Shown here one piece after another: positions 3,001 through 6,056 of a stretch of 6,056 nucleotides of DNA; the first letter of the stretch is position 1, and each line of letters starts with the position of its first letter. Made by a program: the position numbers. Source of the stretch: a virus (Duplodnaviria; Heunggongvirae; Uroviricota; Caudoviricetes); IMG/VR virus record IMGVR_UViG_2537561992_000026, positions 1-6,056 of that record, one strand, 5' to 3'.

Positions 3001-6000
3001 TCTGCAAACCAGATTGAAGGCGACCTGGTGAAGACGGTGGGGAAAGCCTTTCCCCGGAATAACAGTTATGCCAGCGGGACGGTAACCGTCACAGTTTACG
3101 ATGACCAGGGCTTCGACCGGCAGATTATCATTCCCCCGGTGCTGTTTCGCGGGACGAAACACCAGAATTTCAACAGCCCGAATCAGCAGTCGTACTGGTA
3201 TTCCACCTGTAAGCTGCAGGTGCTGAAGAACGGGGTTGAGATTTTCCATGAACCGGCAACGGATGTCAGCCGGGTGTTCTCATCGGTGATAGATATGCCG
3301 GCAGGGCGGGGTCATGTCACCCTGACGTTTAATGTGTCGTCGGCCGGTGCGAACAACTGGACGCCGACAACGTACATCAGTGATTTACTGGTTGTGGTCA
3401 TGAAAAAATCCAACGGCAGGGATCAGTATCAGCTGACGGTTTATTAACCCGGACGGGCACCTCAGGAGGTGCCTTTTTATGACTGAAAACAAAGAGGTAA
3501 TCATGCGGCATTTATACGCAACGATATTATTGTTTACTACCCTGCTGGCAGGAATTGCCTTTCCTGCACAGGCTGAAAGCGGACACGGTGCATTTTCCGT
3601 GGGATATGCTCAGGTTCACCCGGGCGGCGTACCGGCATTGTCCGGTACCGGTGCGCGTGCAGGTGATTTAAAAGGGATTAATGTGAAATACCGTTATGAG
3701 TTCACGGATCACCTGGGCGGCATTGTCGCGCTGAGTTATGCATCGGTGAAGAAAAGTGACACGATGAAGACGGGTGAAAATACCTTCCATTATGAAAGCC
3801 TGCGCGGTCGTTATGTCAGTCTGATGGCCGGCCCTGTCTGGCAGCTCAGTGAGCGGGTCAGTCTCTATGGCATGGCCGGGATGGCGTACACCCGCTGGTC
3901 TGACAGTGTTCAGGATTACCGGCGTGATGAAGTGAAACCGGGGTATGTGAAGGAGACCACCACCGCCAGTGATGGCCATACTGCGCGTCATCTGTCGCCG
4001 GCCTGGAATGCCGGGATTCAGTTCAGTCCCGTAGAGACGGTGGTTATTGACCTTGCTTATGAAGGCTCCGCCAGTGGCGACTGGCGCACTGACGGCTTCA
4101 TCGTGGGGATCGGCCATAAATTCTGATTAGCCAGGTAACACAGTGTTATGACAGCCCGCCGGTTCAGGCGGGCTTTTTTGTGGGGTGAATATGGCAGTAA
4201 AGATTTCAGGTGTACTGAAAGACGGCACAGGAAAACCGGTAGAGAACTGCACCATTCAACTGAAAGCCAGACGGACCAGCAGCACGGTGGTGGTGAACAC
4301 GGTGGCCTCTGAAAATCCGGATGAAGCCGGTCGTTACAGCATGGACGTTGAGTACGGTCAGTACAGCGTCATTCTGTTGGTGGAAGGATTCCCGCCGTCA
4401 CATGCCGGGACCATCACCGTGTATGAAGATTCTCAACCGGGGACGCTGAATGATTTTCTCGGTGCCATGTCGGAGGATGACGTCCGGCCGGAGGCACTGC
4501 GCCGTTTTGAACTGATGGTGGAAGAAGCGGCGCGTCACGCTGAGGAGGCGAAGAAGAATGCCGGAGAGGCGGAGACGTCAGCGAGGAATGCCGGCATATC
4601 AGCCAGTCAGGCAGAAGAGAGCGCTGCAAATGCTGACACTTCAGCAGGGGAGGCATCGGAGTCAGCCCGGCAGGCGGCAGAAAGTGCAGCCTCAGCAAAG
4701 CAGTCAGAGGATGCGTCCTCGTCCTCGGCTTCTGCGGCCGCTCAAAAAGCCAGTGAGTCATCACAAAGTGCAGCAGAAGCTGAATTGTCAAGAAAGACGG
4801 CAGAAAGTGCAGCCGGTAATGCAGCCAGGGATGCAACGACCGCAACAGAAAAAGCCCGGGAGTCAGCAGAAAGCGCACAGTCAGCGGAACAAAGCTGGAT
4901 AGCGGCGGAAGAAGCCGTAAACCGAATCCCCACAGTGGTGGGGCCACCCGGGCCAAAGGGAGAACCGGGGCCCGCGGGTCCTCAGGGGCCGAAGGGAGAT
5001 AAAGGAGAGCGTGGCGACACCGGTCCTGTCGGGGCAACCGGTGAACGGGGACCGGCAGGTGATGCTGGTCCGGCAGGCCCGCAGGGGCCGAAAGGCGACA
5101 GGGGAGAGCGGGGTAGAGACCGGTCTGACGGGAAATGCAGGTCCACAGGGTCCAGAGGGAGATACCGGTGCGGCAGGCCCGGCAGGCCCGGCAGGCCCAC
5201 AGGGACCGAAAGGAGAAACAGGTGCGGCTGGCCCGGTGGGGGCAACCGGACCTCAGGGACCGAAGGGCGACCCGGGGGAGACACAAATCCGTTTTCGTCT
5301 GGGGCCGGCGAGCATTATTGAGACAAACAGCAATGGCTGGTTCCCGGGTACAGATGGTGCGCTCATCACCGGACTGACCTTTCTTGACCCCAAAGATGCC
5401 ACACAGGTTCAGGGGCTGTTTCAGCATTTGCAGGTCAGGTTTGGTGACGGGCCGTGGCAGGATGTTAAGGGGCTGGATGAAGTGGGCAGTGATACAGGCA
5501 GAACAGGAGAATGACATGAACATACTAAAAAAACTTATAGCAGCGTCTGTGCGGTTGCGGAAAGCATGATGGCCGTGAACACGGGCAGTCGCTTACAGTA
5601 CAACTGCGACTGGGACCGGCAGACATTCTGGAGTCCGATGAGAGTGGCATTATCCCGGAGCAGGACAGGGTAATCACGCAGGTGGTGATACTGGATGCGG
5701 ATAAAAAGCAGATACAGTGCGTGGTAAGACCGCTGAGGTAGCCTGAGTTTAACGGACACTCCTTCCTGAAATAGAATGGCATCAGAAGGAGCTAATAATG
5801 AGCAGAAAAACCCAACGTTACTCTAAAGAGTTCAAAGCCGAAGCTGTCAGAACGGTTCTTGAAAATCAACTTTCGATCAGTGAAGGCGCTTCCCGATTAT
5901 CTCTTCCTGAAGGCACTTTAGGACAATGGGTTACCGCCGCCAGAAAAGGGCTCGGTACTCCTGGTTCCCGCACGGTGGCTGAACTGGAATCTGAAATTCT

Positions 6001-6056
6001 GCAACTGCGTAAGGCGTTAAATGAAGCTCGCCTTGAGCGAGATATAATTAAAAAAG

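Follow-up and report, generated by a model that had tools for sequence, protein, structure and literature searches.

The last 323 bases of the stretch of DNA analysed here (6,056 bp, hereafter the window) are the left part of an IS600 element, which begins exactly at position 5734 and interrupts a small phage gene located behind the tail-fibre gene of a lambdoid prophage; the window stops inside the element. We consider it likely that an IS600 copy, presumably of full length, simply inserted into this small gene in an effector-carrying lambdoid prophage of Escherichia coli EPECa14, with the remainder of the small gene as well as the effector cargo located behind the element, and that the sequence stops where it does because of an assembly break.

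The window is the entire contig ADUN01000183.1 (6,056 bp) of draft assembly GCA_000188755.2. The proteins of this assembly are deposited as Escherichia coli EPECa14, and a Shigella origin of the window is thus ruled out. A literature search on the accession and the strain name returned nothing useful. Both contig ends are located in repeated DNA, the left end inside the J gene and the right end inside IS600, indicating that the contig boundaries stem from the limits of the assembly and have no biological meaning.

An ORF listing, together with domain scans, showed that the window covers the distal tail genes of a lambdoid prophage, encoded on the + strand. A J-type host-specificity gene, whose start lies beyond the left end of the window, is split into two parts (27–935 and 844–3447) and is followed by an Ail/Lom outer-membrane gene (3479–4126) and a tail-fibre gene (4191–5514, stop codon 5512–5514). 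The Pfam domains of the two halves of the latter comprise phage_tail_N, collagen repeats and Phage_fiber_C. The two halves are in overlapping frames (ORFs 4185–5321 and 5011–5514), with a 1-base insertion near 5114. The deposited gene calls omit the frameshifted tail-fibre gene and contain instead a 369-aa antisense ORF (4414–5523, − strand). This ORF runs across the collagen/Ala-rich repeats, has no Pfam match and is almost certainly a spurious call. Additionally, the Lom protein has 215 aa in the window versus 207 aa in the relatives, as a 2-base difference at 3478 makes an upstream in-frame ATG; the true Lom start is probably the downstream ATG at 3503. In exact-protein look-ups, the 215-aa Lom matched ADUN01000183.1, and no match was obtained for the 207-aa Lom or the 376-aa frameshifted fibre product.

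The element at the right end had initially been read as an IS3-family, IS600-like insertion, and it proved to be IS600 itself. When aligned to the full 1,264-bp copy of locus L002, window positions 5734–6056 (+ strand) correspond to IS600 positions 1–323, with 99.7% identity over all 323 bases, a match that goes far above chance; copies are present in 3,072 of 5,426 complete E. coli genomes. The name follows the NCBI annotation of the matching copies ('IS3-like element IS600 family transposase'). According to the ISfinder convention, elements sharing more than about 95% nucleotide identity are the same IS. The 99.7% identity over 323 bp exceeds this value and rules out a novel IS600-like relative. 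IS600, a member of the IS3 family, was first described in Shigella sonnei and is widespread in Shigella and in STEC/EPEC E. coli. Amplification of IS600 has been reported in Shigella and in LEE-positive E. coli (STEC) lineages (PMC9397093).

The homology of the flank (query 5450–5735) to the uninterrupted prophages of loci L001 and L005 reaches ...GTAAGACCGCTG and then stops. Two full IS600 copies in other contexts (L002, 5768–7031; L004, 4502–5765) are both 1,264 bp long, start with TGAGGTAGCC and end with CCTCA. The stop of the prophage homology and, independently, the start of the two full copies place IS position 1 at window position 5734. The terminal TGAGG begins exactly there; the TG at 5734–5735 also fits the target, so that homology alone is ambiguous by 2 bp. 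The observed left junction is ...GTAAGACCGC joined to TGAGGTAGCC. These data agree with the left end proposed in the initial annotation, and a terminal repeat starting elsewhere is contradicted by the L002 and L004 copies, which give the same start. The terminal inverted repeats of IS3-family elements end 5'-TG...CA-3'. The left repeat of the window, TGAGGTAGCCTGAGTTTAACGGACACT (5734–5760, + strand), begins with TG, and the right end ...CCTCA, which was seen in the full copies of L002 and L004 only, is part of ...GCCAGTACACCTCA. By hand count, 19 of the 27 positions of the left repeat are complementary to the right end of the full copies, including TGAGGT and CGGACACT.

The exactness of this join bears on whether an insertion took place at all. 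The junction could in principle be an artefact, produced when the assembler fused a prophage contig to an IS600 read, as the assembly is a draft with both contig ends in repeated DNA, the last 10 bases deviate from canonical IS600, the indel-to-substitution ratio relative to the closest relative is unusually high, and the insertion is absent from the 5,426 complete genomes. However, prophage and IS600 sequence meet precisely at the first base of the terminal repeat, the outcome expected of transposition, and the only 2 bp (TG) shared at the join are far too little for a repeat-mediated misjoin. We therefore regard such an artefact as highly improbable.

Supporting the assignment to IS600, the OrfA with a strong ribosome-binding site recognized initially is indeed present. 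The ribosome-binding site GAAGGAG (5785–5791, + strand; AAGGAG at 5786–5791) is located 6 nt before the ATG of orfA at 5798, and the first 86 of 100 orfA codons (5798–6056, + strand) are contained in the window, the 100-aa OrfA having been read from L002. Over these 86 codons, the product displays a helix-turn-helix domain (PF01527 HTH_Tnp_1, E = 1e-20, residues 3–75) and matches the N-terminal positions 1–80 of NCBIfam NF033516 'IS3 family transposase'. The orfA gene runs off the contig at 6056 in an A-rich run, which is likely the site of the programmed frameshift annotated by NCBI in full copies. OrfB of the full comparator copies carries an rve domain (E = 6e-26) and matches NF033516 positions 79–369 (356 bits). 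The right repeat, the DDE domain of OrfB, the frameshift and a 3-bp duplication were seen only on the comparator copies; in the present copy they would lie beyond the contig end. The window shares with IS600 the terminal TGAGGTAGCC..., the ribosome-binding site and the start of orfA, and its OrfA is the same for 83 of the 86 residues' worth of codons, but it holds only the first quarter of the element and differs at two bases, 6047 and 6049. Positions 6047–6056 read ATAATTAAAAAAG versus ATATTAAAAAAAG in canonical IS600, which replaces an L of OrfA with I and shortens the A-run. Falling in the last ten bases of the contig, these differences probably represent an end-of-contig error.

The gap between the fibre stop and the IS is 219 bp, in line with the roughly 220 bp given initially. 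This interval had been considered to hold nothing recognizable, a view not upheld by comparison with the intact relatives. As judged from the alignments, the interval is the 5' four-fifths of a conserved small gene, not empty DNA. In the relatives, a 270-bp gene encoding 89 aa begins 1 base after the tail-fibre stop, and its product is annotated as 'phage tail fiber C-terminal domain-containing protein' (WP_001023435.1). The intact 89-aa homologue carries PF06820 Phage_fiber_C at residues 28–89 (E = 3e-35) and is a paralogue of the fibre's own C-terminus, with 37% identity over 63 residues. The protein also bears a short Cys-rich N-terminal extension. The association of the gene with this type of fibre is conserved in hundreds of E. 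coli genomes, at about 10 copies per genome; the 286-bp flank (5450–5735) has a median of 10 copies per genome in the strains having it. This conserved small gene behind the fibre gene was missed by the deposited annotation and the initial annotation alike.

Comparison with uninterrupted homologous prophages (L001, L002 and L005), which had been suggested as a check, located the insertion in this 89-aa Phage_fiber_C gene. Alignment to the uninterrupted L001 and L002 showed that the 5' 80% of the gene occupies 5516–5733 of the window (+ strand), beginning with the ATG at 5516, and that the uninterrupted target sequence is AGACCGCTGCAAAT. The IS is thus not located in unrecognizable DNA directly downstream of the fibre gene, as initially annotated; it begins 219 bp past the fibre stop, inside codon 73 of another gene. 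The small gene has two lesions in the window, an extra A at 5539 that causes a frameshift and the IS600 in codon 73 of 89. Without the extra A, the translated product agrees with the reference at every residue through L73, after which an R-stop is read from the IS end. A terminator scan of the DNA after the small gene in L005 returned no site by the criteria of the tool.

The closest complete relative of the window is strain 2010C_3902 (locus L005), which is 99.6% identical over 5,735 bases. In L005, the 89-aa gene (13519–13788) is followed by four NleG/DUF1076 effector genes, espW, a chaperone gene and the chromosomal potB. In L001, a 77-bp 'tail assembly protein' pseudogene fragment follows the 89-aa gene, and nleC is also present. 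The intact relatives pass from the 89-aa gene into type III secretion system (T3SS) effector cargo, namely NleG/DUF1076, EspW or NleC. The initial annotation had argued from the lack of a recognizable tfa or cargo gene that downstream phage genes were probably displaced or deleted. This argument fails, because no intact lambda-type tfa is found in the intact relatives either, the 77-bp remnant in L001 being the only trace, so that a window lacking tfa does not point to a loss. As in the stf-tfa arrangement of lambda, the fibre gene here follows J and lom and has phage_tail_N (PF08400) as its N-terminal domain. It differs in having collagen repeats and a Phage_fiber_C end, and the gene directly after it encodes the 89-aa PF06820 paralogue, with no Tfa domain, instead of the Tfa chaperone.

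Two further, independent IS600 insertions were observed near the junction between tail fibre and cargo, in strain 07_3636 together with nine to eleven similar genomes, and in strain 2010C_3902. The IS600 of L002 (5768–7031) interrupts an nleG gene 281 bp beyond the small gene and has the duplication AAC. The IS600 of L004 (4502–5765) is 15 bp past the stop of the small gene in a different, short-tailed Stx-like prophage, with the duplication CAA. Both are simple full-length insertions with 3-bp target duplications and intact downstream genes. Like the insertion in the window, they involve the same element in the same orientation to the tail genes within about 400 bp of the 89-aa gene, but they occupy different sites outside the small gene, whereas the IS of the window is inside it. 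IS600 copies number in the thousands, so their clustering near this junction may be fortuitous; alternatively, it may reflect a mild preference for this target.

These insertions also bear on the question of whether the prophage was truncated, as the initial annotation had held probable. IS600 insertion with an adjacent deletion, or IS–IS recombination, would have eliminated the 3' part of the small gene together with the downstream cargo or the prophage end, leaving the prophage truncated at the IS. In STEC/EPEC backgrounds that carry the IS-excision enhancer (IEE), IS3-family elements are known to generate flanking deletions, and DNA next to an IS can be lost through IEE activity in these strains (PMC9397093). 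Further in line with this idea, the upstream genes carry four indels that break reading frames when compared with an intact relative of 99.6% identity, which fits a decaying prophage, and a contig with the expected right junction was not found. However, there is no sign of a deletion in the window, and the missing sequence is explained by the contig end inside a repeat. In addition, both comparator IS600 copies went in as simple insertions, each flanked by a target duplication and followed by intact genes, and the negative junction searches weigh almost nothing, as the EPECa14 assembly DNA is outside the collections searched. Taken as a whole, a truncation of this kind is conceivable but unlikely.

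The junction searches were as follows. Among 5,426 complete E. coli genomes, none had the exact insertion site: all matches reaching at least 80% query coverage were in two non-collinear pieces, and an 80-bp junction probe gave no collinear match in the same genomes. The absence of the junction from these genomes indicates that the insertion is specific to the strain or to a narrow lineage. Two exact left-junction patterns, of 43 and 25 bases, and a pattern predicted for the right junction (IS600 end + CGC + TGCAAAT) were found in none of the genome, viral and metagenome contig collections scanned, negatives that say little, as the EPECa14 draft is absent from these collections and Shigella/E. 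coli are collapsed in them to one species representative. The right-junction contig was also sought via the downstream NleG protein P0001, which occurred at 10 places in other assemblies, none of them EPECa14 and none with IS600 upstream. Other draft assemblies also break in this tail-fibre/cargo region.

Relative to L005, the window has 17 substitutions and 6 indel events, at 836, 3412, 5114 and 5539 and at the intergenic positions 3478 and 4173. Four of the indels break reading frames: two in J (836 and 3412), one in the tail fibre (5114) and one in the small gene (5539). The lesion at 5114 is an extra T relative to the intact 440-aa fibre homologue in L005. None of the four frame-breaking indels was present in L001, L002 or L005 where the sites were covered; the intergenic T-run variant at 4173 is common to the window and L001. 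In keeping with the initial mention of pseudogenized tail genes, both J and the tail fibre are frameshifted in the sequence of the window. These indels could be real decay of a defective prophage or, equally, consensus errors of an early draft. Given the copy number of the 286-bp flank (a median of 10 per genome in the strains having it), the assembly may have collapsed reads of several prophages. Together with the insertion, the frameshifts, if real, suggest that the tail module of the prophage is defective. With so many copies of the flank, the assembler may also have attached the IS junction to a prophage copy to which it does not belong.

Simple insertion of IS600 into the small gene is favoured because the prophage homology stops at the IS terminus, the comparator copies are simple insertions with duplications, and the corrected ORF is identical to the reference through L73. 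Counting against it, the right end, the target duplication and the downstream DNA of this copy lie beyond the contig. In this scenario, IS600 would have transposed into the 89-codon Phage_fiber_C gene at codon 73, oriented like the tail genes. OrfA and the OrfAB fusion, a DDE transposase made by −1 frameshifting, would excise a circular intermediate, as is standard for the IS3 family. The circle would then insert with a 3-bp target duplication, predicted here to be CGC. The presumed target triplet occupies 5731–5733, and its second copy would follow the right IS end if the insertion is simple. The right IS end would accordingly be expected to abut CGCTGCAAATCCTGCGTGCTGACGG..., that is, CGC + TGCAAATCCTGCGTGCTGACGG... 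/ CGC + TGCAAATCCTGCGTGCTGACGGGACGTGGGAAAATATTGGCGGGATGAAGTAA, and then the effector genes. The product of the small gene would lack the last 16 residues and would end with R-stop, encoded by the IS end. A short-read draft assembly, unable to extend through a multicopy repeat, would stop within the element, here at IS position 323. Because the contig ends inside such a repeat, the missing downstream sequence points to an assembly break and is not a sign of the prophage end.

The element is already known and the insertion is strain-specific, and the finding is in this respect ordinary. Its importance goes little beyond correct annotation, in that the contig runs out, at its 3' end, within a known multicopy IS, a break that should not be taken for the end of the prophage. 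A more far-reaching proposal, which we regard as rather doubtful, is that an IS600-mediated deletion or rearrangement removed the NleG/EspW cargo in EPECa14 and that, given the two nearby insertions, the junction is a preferred IS600 target. If this were true, the loss of cargo would change the type III effector repertoire of EPECa14, and the tail-fibre/cargo junction, as a preferred target of IS600, would drive the turnover of effector cargo.
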